A stretch of 64,000 nt of DNA from Lytechinus pictus (GCF_037042905.1 NC_087250.1:8930001-8994000), one strand, 5' to 3'. Shown: positions 26,681-51,000, counted from the stretch's first letter. The notes: generated from the letters alone by a model not told the origin. Translations and numbers: made by a program.

Positions 26681-29600
26681 CTAGACAGAAAGACAGAGAA
26701 TGGAAAATTCCTGTAAATTCTCAGAAAAATATTGAAAAATTGAAAAAAAAAAAAAAAAAATCTTATCCTCTAACAACTCTGCATGAAAACGAGATTAAAT
26801 ACATTTGCTGTAATTTTGTCAACAATGCTTAAAGGCATGAAATTAAAAACTCAAATTTTTATACTATCAAAGTTCTGATCCATCCGGTGGGAATAGTCAA
26901 ATACTATCACAACATGGGTCATAAAAGTTTATCATACTGGAATTTGAATTTCTTTGGAAAAAAAAAAAGATTAAATGTATTAAAGACATCTTTTTCATAA
27001 ATTTATTTGTTGATACATTCATTTATTAAAGGAGAATGAAACCATTGGAACAAGATAGCTTGTGTGAAAACAGAAAAATCAAAGAAACAGATCAACGAAA
27101 GTTTGAGAAAAATCTGACAAATAATGAGAAAGTTATGAGCATTTGAATATTGCGATCACTAATGCTATGGAGATTCTCACATTGGCAATGCGACAAAGAT
27201 GTGTGATGTCACTTGTGAACAACTCTCCCCATTACTTTAGTATACTTTCACTTAAATTGCCTCTTTTATCACATCTATCAGTAGATCGTGTGTTCTTTCT
27301 ATAGGAGGGCATGTAATACAGATTTTTAAAGAATACATCATGGCTAAAGAGTTTGTATCACCGCAAGAAAAAGCAAAAAGAGACATTTTGGGGGTATTTT
27401 ATAGTCCATCAAAGGGAAAGTTGTTCACATGTGACATCACACATCCTTGTCGCATTGCCAATGGGAGGATCTCCATAGCATTAGTGATGGCAATATTCAA
27501 ATGCTCATAACTTTCTCATTATTTGCCCGATTTTGCTCAAACTTTCTTTGTTCTTATTCTTTGATTTTTCTGTTTTTCCAAAGGTTTCATTCCCCTTTAA
27601 AGTCAGTCATTACTCCATTCATCCACCACACATCCAATCTATCCATCCATGCATTCATCCATCCATGCATGCTTTCATCCATGTAATATGCATTCATCCA
27701 TCCATCCATCCATCCGTCCGTCCGTTCATTCATTCATTCATTCATTCATCCATGCATTCATCCATCCGTCCGTCCATCCATCCATCCATCCAGTCCAAAA
27801 TTTAGCCGTTGTTTAGCAATATTTAAGAATTTTAAGGCAAGGATCTTAAGGGGGGGTAGGCAAAAAAGCCCCCCCCCCCCCCGGCGTTTTGGAATACAAA
27901 ACACCACTTCATTGATTATCACTTTCATGAACTTACCAAACTTAAGCTCCTAGGTTCAATCATACAACTATGTCTCTCTGTCTCACTATCTATCGAGCTG
28001 AAATCTAGTTTACTAGGAGTGCATCTCGGGGTTAGAAGGACCGACGTTCTGGACGGCGAAGGACGCGTAGGGGTACCAATCCATTCTGCACCCCGTACTA
28101 AGCTTACATTGGGACTTCCACATGGACTCAGCCTGTTAAAAGATAAATGCCAGTTGTGGTAATGATCATAATGGCCCATATTCTGAAGTCAGGTTTAACT
28201 TAGACCACGGTCTAACTCTGTGCTAAAATTAAATAAAACCAAAAGTTAAATAATTATGTTTATATTGTATATTTCTTATGTTTACTTTTTTCTTTTCCTT
28301 TTCCTTTTATAATGAATAAAAATACTTCATTTATCATTCCTGAAAATTTTGAACAATTTGGGTGTCATATGAATTGATAGATTGAAAGTGTACTGTTGGG
28401 GATTTGTGCTCCAATTGGCTTTCCATAGTTAAACCACAACTTTACACCAGGGTTTAATTTAAATCCGAGTTCAGACTACGGGCCAATGAGTTTGCACAGA
28501 ATGCAATAAACTGACTACCAAAGTGTCTGTTTGCATAAATAACAGGTGCCAAAGGTGCCAATTGCTGCGAAATCAGCAAAACAAGCATAGGATTTGCGCT
28601 GAATATCAGGTATTTCTCCAAGCGATAATAATACACTGTCCCACATATGCTTATCTCTGAAGTCGATCTACAGGGTTATCGCTATTCACCTTAGATTAAA
28701 CTATTTCACGAAGCTCAGGTAATGACACAGTACCAGATCTGGATCCATGACAATAGGATTTGCCACCGAGCTTGTCGTGGGGGCGCTTTTGCATTTACTT
28801 AATTGAAATTTAAGGACTTCATGCACACTTTAGGTGAATTTCGTAAAAATTTTCAGTAAAAAATGTAAGTTCTCTAACTTTCGGGGGGGGGGGGGGGGAG
28901 GGGGGTGGCAACTGCTCCACCATGACAAGCTTGCTGATGAATAGACCAGTTCTGAGTTACCTCAAGGGCAATTTTGGTCATATCAGCTTTTTTTCTTTCA
29001 TTATGATAGGTAGAATTCAAAGCAAGATATTATGTGAGCATGCCCTACATAGCAGGATGCAGAAATTGCATAGACCTGGGCCCCGTTGTACAAAGAGTTA
29101 CGATTGATCCGATCAATCGCAACTATGGAAAGCCAGCAAAGTCAACATATGAAATGCATGTTTGTTAAAAAAAAATCTAGATATGAATGCATATCCATAA
29201 ATTCATTGATTTCTTGACAATTTGGGGTGTTCTCCTTTGATTACAAAGGACATTTTGCAAATTTCCTGTACAAAAAATTATGACACTAATGGATTTCCAT
29301 AGAGTTACGATTGATCGGATCAATCGTAACTCTTTGTACAACGGGGCCCAGGTGACTAATATAGCACACACATTGAACACTCTATCAAGGTACTGTATTT
29401 ATTACATTTCTGTGAATGCATTAGCATGCTGTTATATCAATGCACTTGGCCAACTGAGAAATGAAAAACCTAATTCAAAAGAATGCATGAATAATCAAGA
29501 CATCAAAGTTGGTGCTTATCTCAATAAATATCAAACCTCCATATTATTTTAGTACAAATGATCTTCTCCTGATCATGCGCAGCAGAGAATAATTTTGCTT

Positions 29601-32600
29601 TACAAATTTGAATAGCATTTTTGGTCATAAGAGAAAAGCTCTCAACTAAGTAATGTACAGTCCTATGTAAAAATATGCTATACGAAAGAGTTTATGCATA
29701 GCAGTCTTTAAAAAGTGTGGAGCAAATTGCGATGCGATACGAGGAAAATTATTCCCTGCACAGAATGGAACTCCGAACTGGCCATTCTCTCGTCATGAAT
29801 ATAGATTTGGTACAGTATGCTGCATATGGCCATATGCCATTGTTGCTACTTACTTTGCTGGTTGTCTGTTTTTAGTGATGGGAGATGAGCTTCTTGGAGT
29901 AGGACCACCGCACTTCTTCTTCTTCTTCAATAGAGTTGGTGTAGATGGAGTCAGTATGCCCTTACTAAAGATGTAGGAAATACAAAACACAGGGCATATT
30001 AAAGCCTGTCTTAACCCTAAGAAGACTGGGGAGGGGGGGGGCTGAATCAGCCCCCCCCCTCGACATTTTTTGCGATAAATCCGCCGCTAAATTTTTTTAA
30101 CCGCATTGCTCGCTGACTTTTTACTTTCAAGTCTCGCCCAACTTTTGAGACCAAAATTGTGACCCCTGGGTAAGCGGTTCCGAAATTACGCAACATTTCG
30201 TAAATACATGCAGACCCAAAATTACTTAAAAACGTGAATTTGTGTACAAATCCAATGCAAATAGTGTTTTTAGCCAAAATTCATAAAATGTATCATTATT
30301 TTTCCTTTTACTGCTTAAAATCAATTAATTTTAACTTGTTTATGGTCAAAATAAAGTCCCTGACAATTTCCACTGAAAAAACAATAAAAAAAAGTAAAAA
30401 AACAAAGAAATACATAAGAAATGTAGAAAACAATAGAATACATCTTATGTATTCTATTGTTTTCTAAATTTCTCATGTATTTCTTTAGATTTTTCGCAGA
30501 ATTTGATATTATAGTTTTGTAGATAATGCCATGGGTAATGCACGTGCCAATTTTCGTCGCGATCGACGTTCAAGATCATAAGGGGGGGGGGCTCCCCATC
30601 TTCTTAGGCGTCGAAATAGCCCAGTCTATTTAGGGTTAACCCTTATCAAACTGGGGGGGGGGGGTCAATTTCTATATGTTCACAAAAAATTAGCATTCTA
30701 CTAGCTATATAAATAGAGTTTAATGCAAAAACATACCAAAAAAAACACCAAAATTAGGGCAGTTTTTTTTTTATACCCTTTTTTGCATATTTATTTCATA
30801 AAGAAATATAAGCAATTAAGTTTTAGAAAATTTTACTATACAGTCTTGTAGTTTACATCCGGCTTAACGCGCGTGCAAATTTTCGCAACGATCGCGCAAT
30901 CAACCGCTGAGATCTGAGGGGGGGGGTCAATCAAGTATATGTTAGTCTGAAATAGCCCAGTTAAGATAGGGTTAAGGTTCGGTAAGGGATACTATGTGAA
31001 TTATCACCCGTATCAGACATCTCTGATTTCGACGGTCATTTATAAAACTGTATTGCCCTAGATTTTCTGAATATCGGGAAAGGATAGGTATATTCTTTGT
31101 CTTTTGCTCGGTCTCCATGCGTGTATTGACTTGGCATGCAGAGACGACGCAAAATATACCTTTGTATTTTCCCTGGTCTCATATCCGGGCATTTAAAGAC
31201 GCGAAGAAAGAGATACGCTTCTGCGCAGCAACAATATATGCAGACCTGCCAACCTCTGGGAATGAAAAATTGTATTCTGTGATAAAAAAAAAGTGTATTT
31301 TCCCCCCAAAAATGTATTTCATAACAAAATGCGCGGCGCACCCGCTCATCGCGGCGCTCAAGCTGCATGCCAGCTAATATGCGCACCGCTCTTGCAGATG
31401 AAAAAATGAAAAAAAAAAAAATTTAAACATGTGTTTGTCTTACCCTGGTTTTAACAAAATGATTGAAAAAAAAACCTGAAATTACATTTAAATAACCATA
31501 TTTGTGTAAGTGTTATGAAATAGAGACATACAGAGATGATTTTTCTCAATAAATTACGATTTTGTAAAAAAAAAAAAAACGTATTTCTTAAAGAAAAAAC
31601 GTACTGCCGTATTTTGGTTGCAAAAACATACTAAATACGCCAAAAATGTACTGGTTGGCAGGTCTGGATATGGCATAACAAAGACAATGCAGGATTCTGG
31701 AACTAGATATGCGTCCCTGGGGACCTAAAAGGTATGTCATAATGGTGAAGTGCTGAGCCTATCAACTGATAAAAACATGACAGATTAGAACCCTATTCTT
31801 AAAAGAAATATCTCAATTTCCATGATTTTTGCTCTAAATGTCTGATTTGGATTTTAATAAAAATATTGACTGGCTCTTCTTTCGGGGAATATCAAATATA
31901 TTGCCCTTAAAGGTAAATGCTAGTTTTGGTAACGATATCAAAATGAAAGAATCCAATGAAATGACCACCAAAGTGTCTGTTTGTATAAATAAAACGCATG
32001 TGCCAAAGGATTCTGGAAGAAATTGTGTAATTGCTGAGAAATCAGCAAATAAGCACAGGATTCGGGTAGAGCGTCGGGCCCGACGCTCAAAGCAATAATT
32101 ATACACAGTCCCACGTGCGCTTATCTGTGTTGGGGAAGTTCAGTCTGAACATTTTCAGCGTAGATTTCAAGATTTCACAAAGTTCAGTTTATGAAACTGT
32201 ACCAGATCTAGATCCTCGATGATATACTGACAATTAAGCCTGGTTTTACAGACTTTCTCATGAAATCAGTGTTTACTGCAACTACTGGGGCCCGTTTCAT
32301 AAAACTTTTGACTTGCAACTGTAACATCTCCCAGGGGACATCCCGATAGACCGCGGGTCCGATAGACCGCGGGTCCGTTAGACCGCGGGTCCGATAGACC
32401 GCGGGTCCGATAGACCGCGGGCCCGATAGACCGCGGGTCCGATAGACCGCGGGCCCGATAGACCGCGGGTCCGATAGACCGCGGGCCCGATAGACCGCGG
32501 GTCCGATAGTCCGCAGTGTGTGTAAAATTATAATAAGATATATCAAATGTCATCGAGAAGACCAAAGGTCAAATGATACGAGGCCATGGGGTTCTATTTG

Positions 32601-41600: not shown

Positions 41601-44600
41601 TCTCTCTCTCCCTCACCCATCCTCACTACGTGTACATATGTGTGCAAGATAAATTATGAGGAACAAATTACAATTGTATAGCATATGAAGTGATGTTTCT
41701 CAACCAGAGATTCCTTATATATTATCTATTGTTGCATGTTTGCATTTTTGTTCATCATATTAACCCATCTTGAGCCCTTTACCCCCCCCCCCGCCCCCCA
41801 TGATAAAAACCTAGTAGTCAAATGACGTTTCCTTTTATTTTCTTTTGATATACTTGCAATGTATACATGTGAGGAAAAAAAATATAGTGCGAAACATTTT
41901 TTGAAAATTTCAATTTAATTCCTTCAGGTGAGGCTTTGTCCACATTTCCAGAAAGACACAAGATAGTATCAGAAAGCCATGCCAAATTCAACGACTGAAT
42001 GGTTTGGAGAGCCAGACAAAGAGCCTAGAAATGTGATTTCACCCGTAAGTTAAACACTCTTGATCATAATTTTGATTCACTTTGGCATTTAAAGTAAGTC
42101 ACATAATAACAATTTGAATGATTTTTTTCTTCTTCATATGCTCTTTGTCAAGAATCCAGTCCAAATTTTAGAAATAAACTCTAAGTTTGAGGTGTTGATG
42201 ATTTTTTTTTTCAGCTGCAAAAATAACAAACCAATATCAATCATTGGTAGATAATTAATATTAATAAATTATTGGTGTGACTTGCCAAATTGGTACATGA
42301 ATATTCTGCATTTCTATAATTATTGACCCCCACCACTACCACCTAAGATGCAACATGTCAAATTACTGTCAAATTCACTTCATCATGTTTTTAATTATTA
42401 ATTTGTCAGTAAAGGAGTAAAATGACTCAGAAAGATTACCCGAAGAAGCTCACATAATTTTTTTTTTACTGGTAGATCCCTTACATTCATTTGATGAATT
42501 GAGTTCATGCAAAATCAACTGAATGTAATGAGTACAAAATCCTGTTAATACACCTTACTAGGTGAGGCTATTCTGGTAGATCATCCCAGGTGGCGCCTGA
42601 GGATCTTGTCCATTTGGAGAAATCTTGCAAAGTATCCAAAGGTGCCTCCACCCCTCCCCCCCCCCCCTCCCCCACAGTCTATTAAGGGTTAACAATGAAA
42701 ATGAAATTAGGAATAAATTTGGTATCTTGCTTATATGCATTATAAATTAATTTCTATTTCAGGTACTTCAATCACATGAACAGCAGCAGGAGCAAAAACA
42801 GCAGCAACCACACAGGAGATGTAACGACAGCATTGACCAACAGCAACAACAACAGCAGCATAAACAATTTCTGCAGGAGGTGCAAAAACCACACCGGCAA
42901 CCTCAACAACATCAAGATGTCCAACAACCACTCCGGGAACATTAACAGCAACCACAACTTCAGCAAGAGTTTCAACAAACACATCAGCAAAAACCAACAG
43001 CAGCAGCAACAACAGCACTTATGAAATGAATTTAATTGAAACTTAAAAGCCAATGAGGAAACATCTTTAACAAAATGAGACATCATTTGTTCATTCTTTT
43101 ACAGGATAAAGGAAAGCTTTTTTGAAAGTGTAAATTTGCAGGAACACAATGTATGTTCCCTATGTATCTATTTATTGAAATAAATTTGACTTTAAAAAGA
43201 ATGAATGATGATTCAATAAATATCTACTTTTTATTTGTCAATGAGTAAAAATACATGTATTTTCTATTTAGAATGACAAAAAGCAATTTATCAAATCAAA
43301 ATCATCAAAAAATTGACCAATATGGCTCTTAGGCCCTCAAAATTGTTGGTATTTTGATGAAAAAGCTGTTTCTGCGGCAATATTTGACGCAGCTCAAATA
43401 GCTGCATCAAATTTGCCGCAGAAATTGTCATTTGCCGCAGCTCCTTGAGCTGCGTCAAATATTGCCGCTGAAATTGTCATTTGCCGCAGAAAGTATCTGC
43501 GGCAAAGTTTTATGAAACGGAAACTTGACGCTGTTATAAGATTTGCCGCAGAAACACAGATTTGCCGCAGAAAATGGGAGTTGCCGCTGCGGCAAATGTT
43601 TTATGAAACGGGCCCCTGGAATTTATCTTTAAAAGAACCATATTGCCCTCGTCTAAAGACTCAGGCCAATATGATTCTGTTGTGGGCAATACATATATTT
43701 GATGTTCCCTCAAGGCCAGTCAATATTGTATAATTATACTCGAGTACCCTATAAAATTCCAATATTACACAAATGTAGTGGTCATTATGTGTTTTGCCCA
43801 ATTTTCTTAAAACATTGAAGTAGCAATAAAGTGTGAAGTCAACCTACCTGTTATGAATAGGTTTTGTATGTTGGATGTTGCAGGCATCTTCCTCACTAGA
43901 GAATGAAAGACTGCCCAAAGGACAACCCAAGGAACCGTGTGATATGTCACTCTCAAATATCTCATCTGAAATAAAAATGAATATTCAGTTCTGAATACAA
44001 AACATTATTGACAACATTGATAATGAAAGATTCCATAACAATAAGCGTCTATGTTTTAGTACAGGATAATCAACCTAGTTTGGGTTGAGCGTTGTGGCCC
44101 AGTGGATTAGTCTTCAGACTTGGAAACAGAGGGTCGTGGGTTCGAATCCCAGCCATGGCGTAATTTCCTTCGGCAAGAAATTTATCCACATTGTGCTGCA
44201 CTCGACCCAGGTGAGGTGAATGGGTACCCGGTAGGATTTTATTCCTTGAATGCTTTAGCGCCTATATGGCCGCTCAGCTGCAGCTGGGGTAATAATAATA
44301 TACCAAGTATATTTCAGCGCCTTGAGCACATAATCAATGTGGATTTGGCGCTTTATAAATACTCTATATTATTATTATTATTACCAACAAATCTCTCTCC
44401 CCCTCTTCTTCCACTGCCCCTTCAACCATTACCCCTCCTCCACTGCTCCCCTCCCTAACCCTCACATACCATCTGAAAAGCTTAGATCCCATGATGACGG
44501 GTGTCTATGTTTAATTACAGGTGCATCTATCTCATCTTGATGACCAACAAAACTTTCTTCCCCTCCATAACCCCCTCCCCTCTCCTTCTTCAATAGCAGA

Positions 44601-47600
44601 CCTGCCAATCTCTGGGAATGAAAAACTGTATTCTGTGATAAAAAAAACTGTATTTTTGCCTAAAAAAAGTGTATTTCATAATAAAATGCTTGGTTCACTC
44701 GCTGCATGCAAGCTAAAATGCGCACTGCTCTTGCAGATGAAAAAAAAAAACATTAAAACATGTGTATATCTTCACCCTGGTTTGAACAAAATGATTGAAA
44801 AAAAAACAAGTTACCTGAAATTACATTGATCTAATAACCATATTTGTGCACGTTTTATGAAATAGAGACATATAGAGATTATTTTTCTCAATAAATTACG
44901 ATTTAGTTTTTTTTTTTTTTTTTTTTACAAAAAACGTATTTTTCAAAGAAAAAACGTACTGCCGTATTTTGGTTGCAAAAACGTACTAAATACGGCTAAA
45001 ATGTACTGGTTGGCAGGTCTGCAATAATTCTATCCTTCAGCCCCCCCTCCCTAACCAACTCCCTTGACATGCCATCTGAAAAGCTTATTATTATATGAAC
45101 TACTTTCTCTTTTTAATATTTTTATTGTCACTTATTCGCTTTATTCTGATATTTGTAGATTACTTGTTTTAAGCTCTACTGTGTCCGTCTCCATTTTTGT
45201 ATATAGTTGTATATATAGTTTGTTTATAATTAGTATTGAAACTAAGTTTAGGGACTTCCCTTCTATACAAGCTTTGCTTTTCTTGGCAAGTCCCTCCGTT
45301 CATTTCTTCATTCTTTTCATGGATAAAATAATTGCAACTCACTTTAGTTTTGTTTAACTTATCTTCAATATTTGTTACAAAATGTCATTGATCTGTCTGT
45401 ATTATATTGAATAATCTATGTATTCTTACTTTGATTATATTTTGAAATTTTGGAAAATGGAAATAAATAAATCTAAATCTAAAGCTAAGATCCCACGATG
45501 ATGGGAGTCTATTGGAGTCTAGACGGCAATCTATTTCATCTGGGTAACCAGTAAAACTCTCTCCCTACTTCACCCACACATCTACCACTCCCTTCCTCTA
45601 ACACCCCTTCCCCCATTACCCCTACTCACAGCGCCCCTTCCCTATTGAATCCCCTCACATACCATCTGAAAAGCTGAGATCCCATGATGACGGGTGTCTG
45701 TGTTTGATCACAGGGGCATCGATCTCATCTTGGTTCATACTATGCTTGGATGGGGATAAGATCTTGAAGACAGCAGCACTCAGCAGGGTGAATAGAAGCG
45801 AAAGGAATCCTTGAAACTTGTTCCACTGGGGATAAAAGAAAATGGAGAGCACCTTCAAGATAAACACTAGGTTTGGAAAGATACTAGCATTTGAATACTA
45901 GCATTCAAATCAAAATCTTATCAACCAGTGTGGTGGCTCAGTTGGTAGAGCGTCCGTCTCGCAACCGAGAGGTTGTGAGACCAAACCCCGGCTGTGTCAG
46001 ACCAAAAGACGTTAAAAAAAGATGGGAGTTGCTGCTACCCTGTTTGGGCTCAACAATTAAAGGGATAGAGCCCCGTCAATCTGGCGCTGCACAGCGGCTG
46101 CCGAGCCTGCGATCAATTGGGCAAAAACAAATTTTCTGAGTATTTCATTGAATATAAAATATGAAAATATGGATTGTAAAATGAATTCAAAGAGAATCCA
46201 ATATAATGAACGCTCAATTGTTTGTATGTATTCATAGGTGGCAAATGATTTTATTTGAGAATGTGTAACAGCAGAAAAATAACAAAATACCCGTAAGTAT
46301 GGCATTCTAGGCATTTTCAAGGCTTTTTCAAGCAATAACAATATATTATATATAAGAATTGTAGGAGAAATAACATGTATATTCATCCATTTAGTTATTC
46401 TTTTTCTATAAGGAAGTTTATTGCATAATAAGAACATTTCAGAATGTCTTATTTAGGTATGTATGCATGAGGCAGAATAATGATTGGTATTTGTGTAATA
46501 TACAATGATTCTTGGCAGGCAATAGGGCCTGCTAAAAGCAGTTGGAAAATGAAAATAGGATAAGCTCTGTTGTTTACATTGTTAATTTCACTGAGGTCAT
46601 TCAAGAGTCTCCTAGAGTTAGGATTGCTCTAGAAAGAAGGAGAATGTTCTTCTTAAAGACAATACCAAAAGCTTCGAGAATAGTGGACATTTAAGGAATC
46701 TTCGCCACATGTGCCTATCTGTGTTATTGATCTTTAATGTTAAGCACTGCATACAATTAATGGCTTTAGCATGTTCCAAGGAATTCCTTCGTACCGGGTA
46801 CCCACTGACTACAATGCATGGAAAGTCACAGATGTAGGGTATTCTTACAATTAATTTCAACCTAAAATAAGAAGATGCTTTTCATTTCACATTTTCAGAA
46901 AATAAGCATGACGTGATTTGTTTCGAAATTGGATTGTGGACCAGTCGTTAAGTGCGAAGAGGCCTTCAGACAAGGTGCCTCACACAGTAGCAGATGATAT
47001 CTTACTACCAGCATATCAACCAAGGCGGAGTAGAGCATTTATTTTCCTCACCATTCTGCACAGCGCCCTCTTTCTTCTCTGCCAGGCAATAGTACGTTGA
47101 ACTACACTAGTCTCCATCAATTCAGCAAGGGATGGTCTCTTTTGAAAGTCTGGATTCATCATACTTTTTATCAATCCTTTCAGATCAGATGAAATACCTA
47201 GGGAATAAAAAAAGCATAATAAACATATTGGCCCGTATTCTGAACTCCGGTTTAAATTACACCCTGGTTTCAAAATGTGGTTTAACTATGTAGAGCCAAT
47301 TGGGGCACAAATCCCTAACAGTACACATCCAATTCATTAACTCATATGACACCCAAGTATTTTATCATTATGAAAGCAACAGAAATCAAAATAGTTAACA
47401 AGAAATATACAATATAAACAGATTGTTAGAATTTTTGGCTCCCATAATTTTAGCACAGACTTAAATTAAACCATGGTCTAATTTAAACCTGACATAGACT
47501 CAGAATACAGGCCATTGGGTGGTATCCTGATAATAAAACCAAGGTTTAACCCAAGTCTAAACTAGAATTATAACCGCACTTCTATGGAATGATGGGATTC

Positions 47601-47796
47601 ATAATATTTCTTCCATATTCATTGCACTTATAATGTATCAATTAATTCATTAGAATTCATAATTCATAACCAGCTTCTGATATTACTACTATTAGTAGTA
47701 GTAGTAGTACTACTACTACTACTACTACTACTAATACTACTACTTCTACTACAACTACTACAACTAGTACTATTACTACTACTACTATTACTACTT

Positions 47797-47827
<31 letters not shown>

Positions 47828-47843
47828 AACTATTACTACAACA

Positions 47844-47881
<38 letters not shown>

Positions 47882-47925
47882 TACAACTACTACTAGTACT
47901 ATTATTACTTCTACTACTGCTACAG

Positions 47926-47974
<49 letters not shown>

Positions 47975-47995
47975 TACAACTACTACTAGTACTAT

Positions 47996-48053
<58 letters not shown>

Positions 48054-51000
48054 GCTGCTGCTGCTAGTGCTGTTGCTACTACTACCACCACTTCTACTAC
48101 TACTACTACTCCTACTACTACTTCTACTACTACTACTACTACTACTACTGCTGTTGTTGTTATATAAAGTGCAAATACCTTCACGGCGCTAGCCCAGCAA
48201 CAGTTCCTTTACATATATACAGACAAGCTACAAATATACCTGTAAGCAAATTCTACCAATATATCAAATGAATGTTAGTGGCTCATGCATTATTAAGCAC
48301 GTAAATGGATTTCCTGACATACCAGCCGTTAGTTGCCATGGTATCCTCCCCCTTCGTAGATCATGCCAGGAGTCTCCATTACGAGGAAGCTCTAAGTCGC
48401 TGGCGAGCTCGAAGATCGTTATACCTAAGCTGAAAAACACAGGTATGTATTCTCATTGTATTTATTAAATCGAAGTTAACTTAGGCACACACTGAAAGTA
48501 ATATTGGGCAAATATTTTGTACAGAGCAAGGGAAATTGTACATAGAAGTGAATTGAATAGATAATATGTTTATAAACAAATTTTCTTGAAATTAGCTGTT
48601 AAAACTCTGTCACTTGCTGTTAACATAAAGAAACAACAAGATATGGCTGTTATATATTATTATATATATTATACTGCTGCCGCTGCTGTCAGAAAAACAG
48701 CACCTACAGACTCACTCTGCTGTGCAGTAAAGAGATAACATAAACAAATGAAGAATTTCTTCATACGAAAGTGAAGGAAAAATAGTTTACCTGAAAACAT
48801 CAGCATGCATTCCAAAGTGACCTTGTAAAAGCTCAGGTGCTAGGTATTTAGGATCTCCTTCTTGAGCATCAGTGAAATCACGCTAGATTAACAAAATAAA
48901 AAGAGACTTAAAGTTAAAATGGAAGTAATCATTGAGTTCTTGAACTCCTTTTATTATATTTAGTAAGAATATCATGAAACTAGAAGCATTCTCAATCGCA
49001 AACAATCCAAATCTTTGCCTCCGTCATTACCAGACAGAGAATATATAACACTTAAACTTTTTGTGAAACACCCCCACCCCCTGGTCTAATATCACTAACA
49101 CTAAAGCCCAGCGCATACTATGCGACATGATTGCATCAAGATCCAATTGTAACAAAATCAGAGTGTGCGCCAACCTACAACGCACTCACTGCAATAGCGA
49201 CCCGCTTTGTTACAGTAGGATCGCAGAACAAATCTCAGACATTTTACGTGTCAAATCTTTGTGATTTTTCTGCGCTTTTACTAATTTCAGCCAATCAGAT
49301 TTGTCCTAGACGACAAAATCATGGCCAATTTGCTGCACTGCTGCAGCCCAGACAAAGAACGCGCAAAAGAAGAGGCACCGTGAGATGCAACGCGCTGCAG
49401 AGCTGTTGCAATGTGTGCGCTGGCCTGCGATTCGATCGCACGAAGATGGGAACGGCAACTTGTTGGAATCAGATCTTAGTGCAATCGCATAGCATAGTTT
49501 GCGTTGGGCTTTACATCCATATGATTAAAAGACCTATTAGTGTTATTTACCAAATTTTCAGCTGACAAAATGCAATACAATAAAGACAAAGTAGAAATGA
49601 ACCATCTGGGGCAGTCGACCAAAGATTGAGACCACGTAGTAAAACAAGACGGTGTTTGTCTGGTTGTTAGGAATGTTCCCTTTTATTATACGATCTGTAT
49701 ATTTCTATCCAGTCTCTCTCGCTCATCTCTCTACTCTGGAGCTAATTTTATTCTCCTTTTCTTTCACTTTACCTCTCCTACCTCTCCTCCCGACTCATCT
49801 TTACTTGATCTCTTTCTCAGTCTATTACTGCATCCTTGAGTTCATCCCTTTTATTGACATATTTTCTTATTTGAGGCTACCTTGCCTTTAGGCCTTCTTA
49901 GGTGTGCCTCACAAGCCTTGCATTTTTATAGAACACAACTGTATTTTATATTTTACCATTTTACTATTTACCATAATCTGTGATGAGGTACTACATCCTT
50001 ATGTACATTGTAATTGAAATGTTATATTGTATGTAGGTTTTATCAGCCTATTTTGATTGGCTTGTGAAATAAAGATGAAATAAATGAAATGAAAGACCAT
50101 GCTCTCATCTTTTTTCTTGAACTGGTATCCCTTTACTCAGTTCAACAAAAGAGTTTTTATTATTATCATTATTTGTTTGGCATCGCCTGTGTCTAGGAGG
50201 CGAAAAGCGAACTGAATCACTATGACCGCAGGTCTCTCCTCCCAATATAACCGATGGGGGGGGGGGGGGGGGGGGGGGGGAGTGCACGCGGACCACTACA
50301 CCGGGGTTTCCCCCTACTCTTATGCGAATAGTGCAGTGGGTTCTTAACGTGCAAAGGTGGTGACTCTCCTCTACACGGGGCCTCCATTTAATGTCCTATC
50401 CGAGGGACGGAGTGTTTTCCATTGTAACATAGCCTGCATCTATGAAACATGGGAAAGACGTTTACACACAACGCACTGGCTTCAGTCATCCACCAGGGGT
50501 GGACTCGAATCCACGATCTTTGGTTCGATGGGCAGACGCGTTATCGACTGAGCCAACAACGCTCTCAAAAGAAGTTTAGAAGATCCCTTTGTTAATATTC
50601 TCATCACAATATCCTGAACCACATCGCAAGGTGAGACCACTTAAGATCTCTTTCAAGACTGTTCAAACTTTCCATTATACATTAAACTGGTTTCCACTCA
50701 GAAGGTAGATAGGTATGCGGTCCAAGTCGATATAAACCCACAAAAAAATCAAATGAAATCCATCCACAAATTAAATCTTACCCTAAAAAAATAATAAAAA
50801 CTTACTTCATTCATTTGAACAGACAGTCCAAAGTCCCCCAGCTTGCAGACTTTATCAAAAGATATGAAGATGTTCTCTGGTTTAATGTCCAGATGCAACA
50901 GACCGTGTGAATGCATGTGGTGTAATCCCTGAAAAATATTGAAAAACAGATTTAACAAAAACTGTTACAACGTATTTCTTTTCTCCTGGTTATGGGATCA

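Follow-up and report, generated by a model that had tools for sequence, protein, structure and literature searches.

A stretch of coding sequence that recurs in the intron behind it, without indels and with synonymous changes only, raises the question of whether the copy is a new exon under purifying selection or a silent relic that merely resembles one. The question arises in a 64,000-nucleotide (nt) stretch of the Lytechinus pictus genome (GCF_037042905.1, NC_087250.1:8930001-8994000), here called the window, with all positions counted from its first letter. A Myt1/PKMYT1-type kinase gene lies on the minus strand of the window, and the intron between two of its exons, J and K, holds three extra copies of the 3′ end of exon J in the order J-tail, C, B, D, together with three transposon insertions. 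The findings presented here suggest that copies C, B and D are probably silent intronic pseudo-exons, whose synonymous-only appearance would come from changes on the exon J lineage, from the allelic diversity of J with probable gene conversion, and from chance. So read, the array is an ordinary intronic relic, and no copy reaches messenger RNA (mRNA) in the data examined.

The repeat unit joins the terminal 66 nt of exon J (45728-45663) to about 90-120 nt of the adjoining G-rich intron. A repeat search placed the exon J tail with its donor (45652-45732) and copy B (44459-44539) in one 81-nt family at 93% identity, with copy C (45463-45543) as a member at 60% identity; at the codon level, C and D can be aligned with no gap and no shift of register. 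The similarity of the copies is far beyond chance and the locus is, in structure, a tandem exon duplication. A previous interpretation made from the DNA alone (the sequence-only reading) had proposed a tandem duplication of the J tail and its intron with two downstream copies; both are present, and a third, decayed copy (D) has to be added to them. Its description of the individual copies was accurate as well. Copy B lies between a caag|ATGAG acceptor and a GATG|gtatgt donor as a symmetric phase-1 unit of 66 nt that would repeat 22 amino acids, and copy C combines a CAG acceptor with an insertion (45480-45088) and a GC donor. Pairwise alignment and the codon table likewise bear out the observation on which the case for selection was built: J and B (44535-44470) differ at exactly six of 66 nt, with no indel, and all six changes are third-position and synonymous (ATC>ATA, GCC>GCA, GTG>GTA, ATC>ATT, CAC>CAT and CTC>CTA). 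The 12 nt after the donor (G|GTATGTGAGGG) are the same in J and B, and copy B keeps its frame, with phase 1 at both ends and no stop codon in its 22-amino-acid translation.

As a genuine cassette exon, rare or confined to a tissue or stage, copy B would add a second R-x-PS-x-WDLSFSD motif to the kinase tail, and its coding capacity would be under purifying selection. The absence of non-synonymous changes and indels, the donor shared with J together with the next 12 nt, and the frame-preserving length of the unit all speak for this explanation. The duplicated residues also belong to the best conserved part of the echinoderm tail: in the alignment of orthologues (A1), ten residues are invariant (R381, P383, S384 and W386-D392) and the remaining 12 codons of the unit vary. 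Furthermore, some unannotated intronic exon duplicates in human are reported to be expressed tissue-specifically (Ivanov & Pervouchine 2022, PMC9013439). We nevertheless regard this explanation as unlikely in view of the transcript, gene-model, splice-site and polarity data described below. A wider version, in which B, plus C before its disruption or in insertion-free haplotypes, is a rare 66-nt cassette exon (oocyte-restricted, for example) that doubles the invariant motif, seems to us equally doubtful.

Three stranded libraries of RNA depleted of ribosomal RNA (X21-X23, with the same species label) were aligned to positions 43500-47400, using about 6% of each run, reads with at least 95% identity to the reference and joints listed from three reads upward. 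Exon J was clearly spliced to both of its neighbours. The I-J joint (45825/47052) was covered by 6, 7 and 9 reads (22 in all) and the J-K joint (45665/43966, with a variant letter at the final position of the exon) by 4, 10 and 2 (16 in all), while the exon J bins had a depth of 2-11 per run, or about 22-34x when pooled and corrected for their exonic share. A constitutive copy B would have drawn about 40 reads. No joint to or from B (44535/44470) or C was listed in the three libraries, and this includes the two junctions that inclusion of B would produce (45663 to 44535 and 44470 to 43965). The bin that holds all of B (44417-44547) had a depth of 0 in all three runs and on both strands. Inclusion junctions, the mark of a cassette exon, were thus not seen in these libraries, which places the upper bound on inclusion of B at about 8-17%.

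The gene models agree with the RNA. None of the five Lytechinus Myt1 proteins that span the region (P0001 and P0004 from L. variegatus; P0002, P0006 and P0007 from L. pictus) includes B, and all five have one copy of the motif and pass from ...SFSD straight to DEIFESD. The two 90% clusters of Lytechinus Myt1 proteins had no further members, searches for longer or near protein forms returned single-motif forms only, and a protein search that considered 14 candidates returned, at E <= 0.01, no shorter fragment that spans J-K. The doubled motif was absent from all orthologues aligned (L. variegatus, two further echinoderms and a brittle star).

The splice sites of copy B present a mixed picture. 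Its donor, G|GTATGTGAGGG, is the same as the used donor of exon J. Its acceptor is an AAG behind gaggggaagaaag...ttggtcatc, with A as the -3 base and 10 pyrimidines among the 20 upstream positions, in a purine-rich context. All nine mapped acceptors of the gene are CAG (seven) or TAG (two) with 9-18 pyrimidines out of 20, and the acceptor of exon K reads CAG. The weakness of the AAG acceptor, which the sequence-only reading had itself conceded, is in keeping with this comparison. Its picture of one copy alive and one dead survives in part: an intact-looking copy does stand beside broken ones, but B as a live cassette exon finds no support in its zero RNA depth, the J-K reads without a joint to B, the single-motif proteins and the unusual acceptor.

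The codon pattern also loses force when the six differences are given a direction, with the two other copies, C and D, and the exon J alleles seen in RNA serving as outgroups. At 45709 and 45700, copies B, C and D have the same state and J alone differs; at 45700, moreover, the expressed J of library X23 carries the B state (7/7 reads). At 45721, B and C both have A, as does the expressed J of X21 and X22 (5/5 and 14/14 reads), and X23 has T (8/8). Since the B states at these three positions recur in C, in D or in both, and those at 45721 and 45700 in expressed J alleles too, it is the reference J that is derived there. Three of the six differences therefore lie on the reference-J lineage, where nothing but synonymous change is to be expected; two are private to B (45715 and 45706) and one is ambiguous (45676). 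Half of the differences thus cannot be credited to selection on B. Exon J is itself variable: each of the two expressed J haplotypes differs from the reference at at least four synonymous sites within the 66 nt (45721, 45685, 45664, and 45697 or 45700). With its six differences, B is little more distant from the reference J than are alleles of J itself. By our estimate, the mismatch of 14-26% between the J and B intron parts predicts about 6-11 differences in the exonic part, where six are seen, so that the total divergence fits a neutral B. Altogether, the selection signal is weaker than previously claimed. The figure of (1/3)^6, about 0.001, is arithmetically sound and lies close to the result of a formal null model (given below), while the step from that figure to purifying selection on B is weakened by the three changes that belong to J.

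The RNA reads gave a further observation on the gene as a whole. In all three libraries the RNA reads departed from the reference exon J, at 5-8 of 162 positions; one of the changes is a replacement (45736, Met>Ile). The reads fall into two J haplotypes, each seemingly homozygous within a library, and exon I (47022-47204) had variants at 47087 and 47091. To judge from these variants, the reference looks to carry a deeply divergent allele of the expressed gene, a paralogue being less likely.

Non-allelic gene conversion with a functional parent can homogenise unprocessed pseudogenes and pseudo-exons. Copy B resembles such converted pseudo-exons in that a patch of high similarity (91% and gapless over the 66 nt of the exon part, followed by the 12 identical nt) lies within less similar, indel-rich sequence (74-86% with 2-9 gaps, depending on the alignment), and in that some of its states are shared with J alleles. 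Two of the six B states segregate among J alleles, against a chance expectation of about 1.4 (hand estimate). We infer that B was probably last homogenised from another J allele. Given the high synonymous polymorphism of exon J, a copy converted from another J allele would differ from the reference J only synonymously. The sequence-only reading had warned that conversion from a divergent allele could mimic its pattern, and the four or more synonymous allelic sites in the expressed J suit that caveat. The number of shared states does not exceed what third-position variants would have in common by chance.

Several observations weigh against a silent array and are best taken together. Under a null model in which exon J changes synonymously only and B changes freely, across a range of mutation spectra, the probability that all six differences are synonymous is 0.001-0.006; the pattern was picked out post hoc and is nominally unusual. 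If only the two or three changes on B alone are counted, all of them synonymous, the probability is 0.008-0.07. The two states shared with J alleles, among six sites, amount to about a chance overlap of third-position variants. The RNA test was shallow: with 16 J-K reads, the 95% upper bound on inclusion of B is by our estimates about 8% from coverage and 17% from junctions, the depth is modest, and a minor or tissue-specific isoform would be compatible with these reads. In addition, no read over 45721, 45736 or 45772 has the reference base; the RNA animals carry J haplotypes other than that of the reference, and their B copies may differ from the reference B as well.

Copy C adds to these points. 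It aligns with J without gaps over 20 codons and with 18 differences in 60 nt, of which 13 fall in codons 5-12. The other five, in codons 1-4 and 13-20, are all synonymous (5 of 6.7 synonymous sites, 0 of 29.3 non-synonymous sites), in agreement with the claim that C had changed only synonymously across EID and PSSWDLSF. The seven amino-acid changes of C all fall in the 12 variable codons and none at the ten echinoderm-invariant residues (hypergeometric P 0.005). Free decay does strike such residues, as copy D shows, where five of nine amino-acid changes are at invariant positions. The lack of replacements in C at the conserved motif is a residue that silent decay leaves unexplained, and it keeps alive both a rare cassette exon and a further possibility, namely that B and C were once functional alternative exons that are now being lost, C through the transposon and the GC donor and B through a weakened acceptor.

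That the copies were once in use would account for the flanks of C, which are near saturation at synonymous sites with no replacement, for the contrast with D at the invariant residues and for the CAG acceptor that C retains. We think it improbable all the same. The division of C into flanks and a middle part was to some extent made post hoc, and a local repeat in the middle, TAGACTCC-AA-TAGACTCC, suggests that this part may have changed in one templated event; if codons 7-9 did so, the significance falls to about 0.05. The doubled motif occurs in no aligned orthologue, and no expression evidence of any kind supports past use. Were the copies cassette exons after all, protein-level selection would explain why no non-synonymous change stands against six synonymous ones in B and five in the flanks of C. 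The locus would then show exon birth from a partial-exon duplication in progress, with one copy alive, one recently killed and one decayed; D, C and B would form a dated series leading to a new exon in the coding sequence of a cell-cycle regulator, and the conserved tail motif would appear to be dosage- or copy-sensitive.

The explanation we favour, that of silent pseudo-exons, would run as follows. Repeated duplication of one unit, made up of the 66-nt exon J tail and about 90-120 nt of intron, would have built the array, and the copies would have stayed out of mRNA. D would have decayed freely and C would have been broken by the transposon insertion and a GT>GC change of its donor, with B still intact. 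About half of the J/B differences would be synonymous substitutions on the lineage of the functional exon J, homogenisation from a different J allele would add only synonymous differences from the reference, and the few changes on B itself would have hit third positions by chance. A parent lineage and its alleles contribute synonymous changes only, and an unselected copy can therefore look selected. The locus is useful as a warning that a constrained and highly polymorphic exon may differ from its copy at synonymous sites alone even when the copy is under no selection.

Human genes contain 4,027 unannotated intronic tandem exon duplicates, with RNA support for some only, and that tissue-specific, according to Ivanov & Pervouchine (2022, PMC9013439); a 2002 survey, as cited there, put the share of animal genes with tandemly duplicated exons at about 10%. 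The Myt1 array belongs to this known class of intronic unannotated duplicates. As in the human cases described in that source, exon and flanking intron are repeated in the neighbouring intron with frame and splice-like signals kept. It departs from them, as they are described there, in that only the 3′ 66 nt of the exon are copied, in that its three copies are at different stages of decay and in that no expression was seen. Since the copies derive from the 3′ part of the exon only, each acceptor had to arise from formerly exonic or intronic sequence. With mutually exclusive and cassette exons from tandem duplication the copies share their proposed origin and a frame-preserving length, but they differ in having no mRNA inclusion in the libraries and models tested; being partial, they would on inclusion add a repeat and not replace the parent exon. 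Compared with other Myt1/PKMYT1 kinases, the expressed protein has nothing unusual, the duplication not reaching mRNA as far as tested.

The array could in principle be an artefact of assembly, with collapsed or expanded haplotypes giving false tandem copies. Nothing direct points to this, beyond the fact that the RNA animals carry other haplotypes. The copies differ from one another by 9-35%, have distinct intron parts and are separated by three different transposon insertions, unlike mis-joined alleles, and we hold an artefact to be highly improbable. The coordinates of the array and of the two exons that enclose it are collected in Table 1.

Table 1. Features of the J-K region of the Myt1 gene, in the order of transcription (window positions)
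Feature	Position	Strand	Remarks
Exon J	45663..45825	-	Ends ...SSWDLSFSD plus 1 nt of the next codon; P0006 match, RNA joints and splice mapping
G-rich intron part, unit 1	45545..45662	-	Donor GTATGTGAGGGG to ...GAGAGTTTTACTGGTTA; 74-86% identical to the unit-3 intron part
Copy C, 5′ part	45481..45542	-	CAG acceptor (45542-45540) and 59 nt of would-be exon; 20 codons with the acceptor G
AT-rich insertion splitting copy C	45088..45480		393 nt; flanked by near-identical 8-mers TTAGCTTT / TAAGCTTT
Copy C, 3′ part (..AAGCTTTTCAGATG)	45023..45087	-	GC donor (45072-45071) and start of the unit-2 intron part
MITE-like insertion	44596..45022		427 nt; terminal inverted repeats GCAGACCTGCC / GGCAGGTCTGC; inside the unit-2 intron part
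Rest of the unit-2 intron part	44536..44595	-	Ends in the would-be B acceptor ...gttttgttggtcatcaag
Copy B, intact 66-nt phase-1 pseudo-exon	44470..44535	-	6 synonymous, 0 non-synonymous changes against J; no indel
Donor GTATGTGAGGG and G-rich intron part, unit 3	44381..44469	-	Pairwise alignment
tRNA-derived SINE-like element at the start of unit 4	44086..44380 (approximate)		Read from the sequence
Copy D, decayed fourth copy, behind the SINE	~44015..44071	-	Gapless alignment to codons 4-22 (19 codons)
Exon K, the real splice partner of J	43848..43965	-	...KPIHN; 16 J-K reads, splice mapping

No simple duplication order fits the array. A simple young duplication of the whole unit was considered for B; the J and B intron parts are the closest pair (74-86%) and yet separated by 2-9 gaps, and copies C and D are not close to each other, with 32 of 62 positions in common. 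A run of Tandem Repeats Finder did not report the array, because the insertions separate its units, and an exact-pattern scan of metagenome contigs for the repeat unit gave 0 matches. Exon K, which starts with DEI and contains LSFS, was considered as a further product of the same unit and rejected as a recent event, K being present in the brittle star orthologue as well. Local alignments of K with the units gave shuffle p values of 0.33 (J), 0.01 (B), 0.13 (D) and 0.74 (C), and of 0.07 at the protein level.

The near-identical 8-mers around the 393-nt insertion look like a target-site duplication. Two of the insertions resemble a short interspersed element (SINE) derived from a transfer RNA (tRNA) and a miniature inverted-repeat transposable element (MITE), respectively. 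RNA depth reached about 1000-3000x at the SINE-like element (44024-44416) and 50-120x at the MITE-like element (44548-45071), with many loose ends at the borders, those at the SINE lying at 44087 and 44228-44250. These depths show that both are multi-copy families, abundant and transcribed genome-wide. Contigs of a second organism (organism B, X12) aligned with the transposon parts only, and with none of the exons or copies, so both families are shared with a related species. Runs of GGG or GGGG crowd the intron parts directly downstream of the donor (45545-45662, 44381-44469 and 44536-44595). Triplets of G close to a 5′ splice site are often intronic splicing enhancers, and the G-runs copied together with the donor may affect recognition of the copies.

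The identity of the host gene was established at several levels. Its kinase exons are visible in stop-to-stop frames, and translated exon J (45825-45664) matched L. variegatus and L. pictus proteins at 98% identity in a protein search, under the NCBI name 'membrane-associated tyrosine- and threonine-specific cdc2-inhibitory kinase-like'. The L. pictus protein P0006 (XP_063956783.1) matched exon J at 100% over residues 339-392 (tblastn and cluster look-up), and the host gene matched Myt1-like records of the two species at 98-100%. Precomputed Pfam entries listed for the matching proteins give the kinase domain as PF00069 and PF07714; in the product of the host gene this domain is followed by a hydrophobic stretch and then by a Ser/acidic tail. 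Judged by its kinase domain, its C-terminal hydrophobic membrane segment and its orthology to named Myt1, the host gene is a Myt1/PKMYT1 gene. Nine introns were placed exactly against P0006, and the J-K junction was placed at 45663/43965. Exon K is also conserved in P0008, from a second echinoderm, and in P0009, from a brittle star.

Beyond exon K, the annotation of the gene is irregular. After K, P0006 (466 amino acids) has only an odd last exon, which lies at about 40397-40302 on the minus strand (...EWSW). The canonical tail exons (ILTPSTPT...) lie 14-16 kilobases further down on the same strand, at about 29954-28009 (29880-29954 and 28009-28116). Their sequence is present in a separate 120-amino-acid 'uncharacterized protein' (P0005), and an older model (P0007, 575 amino acids) joins both parts; the Myt1 gene model thus looks split in the P0006/P0005 annotation. 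Another record, P0003 (source label XP_784711.4), reads through the exon J donor (SFSD-GM-LQIKQIK) and has no exon K sequence, which is probably a mis-annotation and not a real loss of the exon. Where the counterpart of exon K begins, the Amphiura protein P0009 (alignment A1, columns ~450-480) reads FDSDISYD / FDSDISYD / FDSDISRSD, three successive versions of one short motif; here the same acidic/Ser part of the tail has been amplified in tandem independently, and within coding sequence. Finally, the intron upstream of exon I contains a low-complexity tract of trinucleotide type, about 590 nt long (47605-48192), which is open in several frames, as poly-Leu, poly-Ser/Thr or poly-Val.

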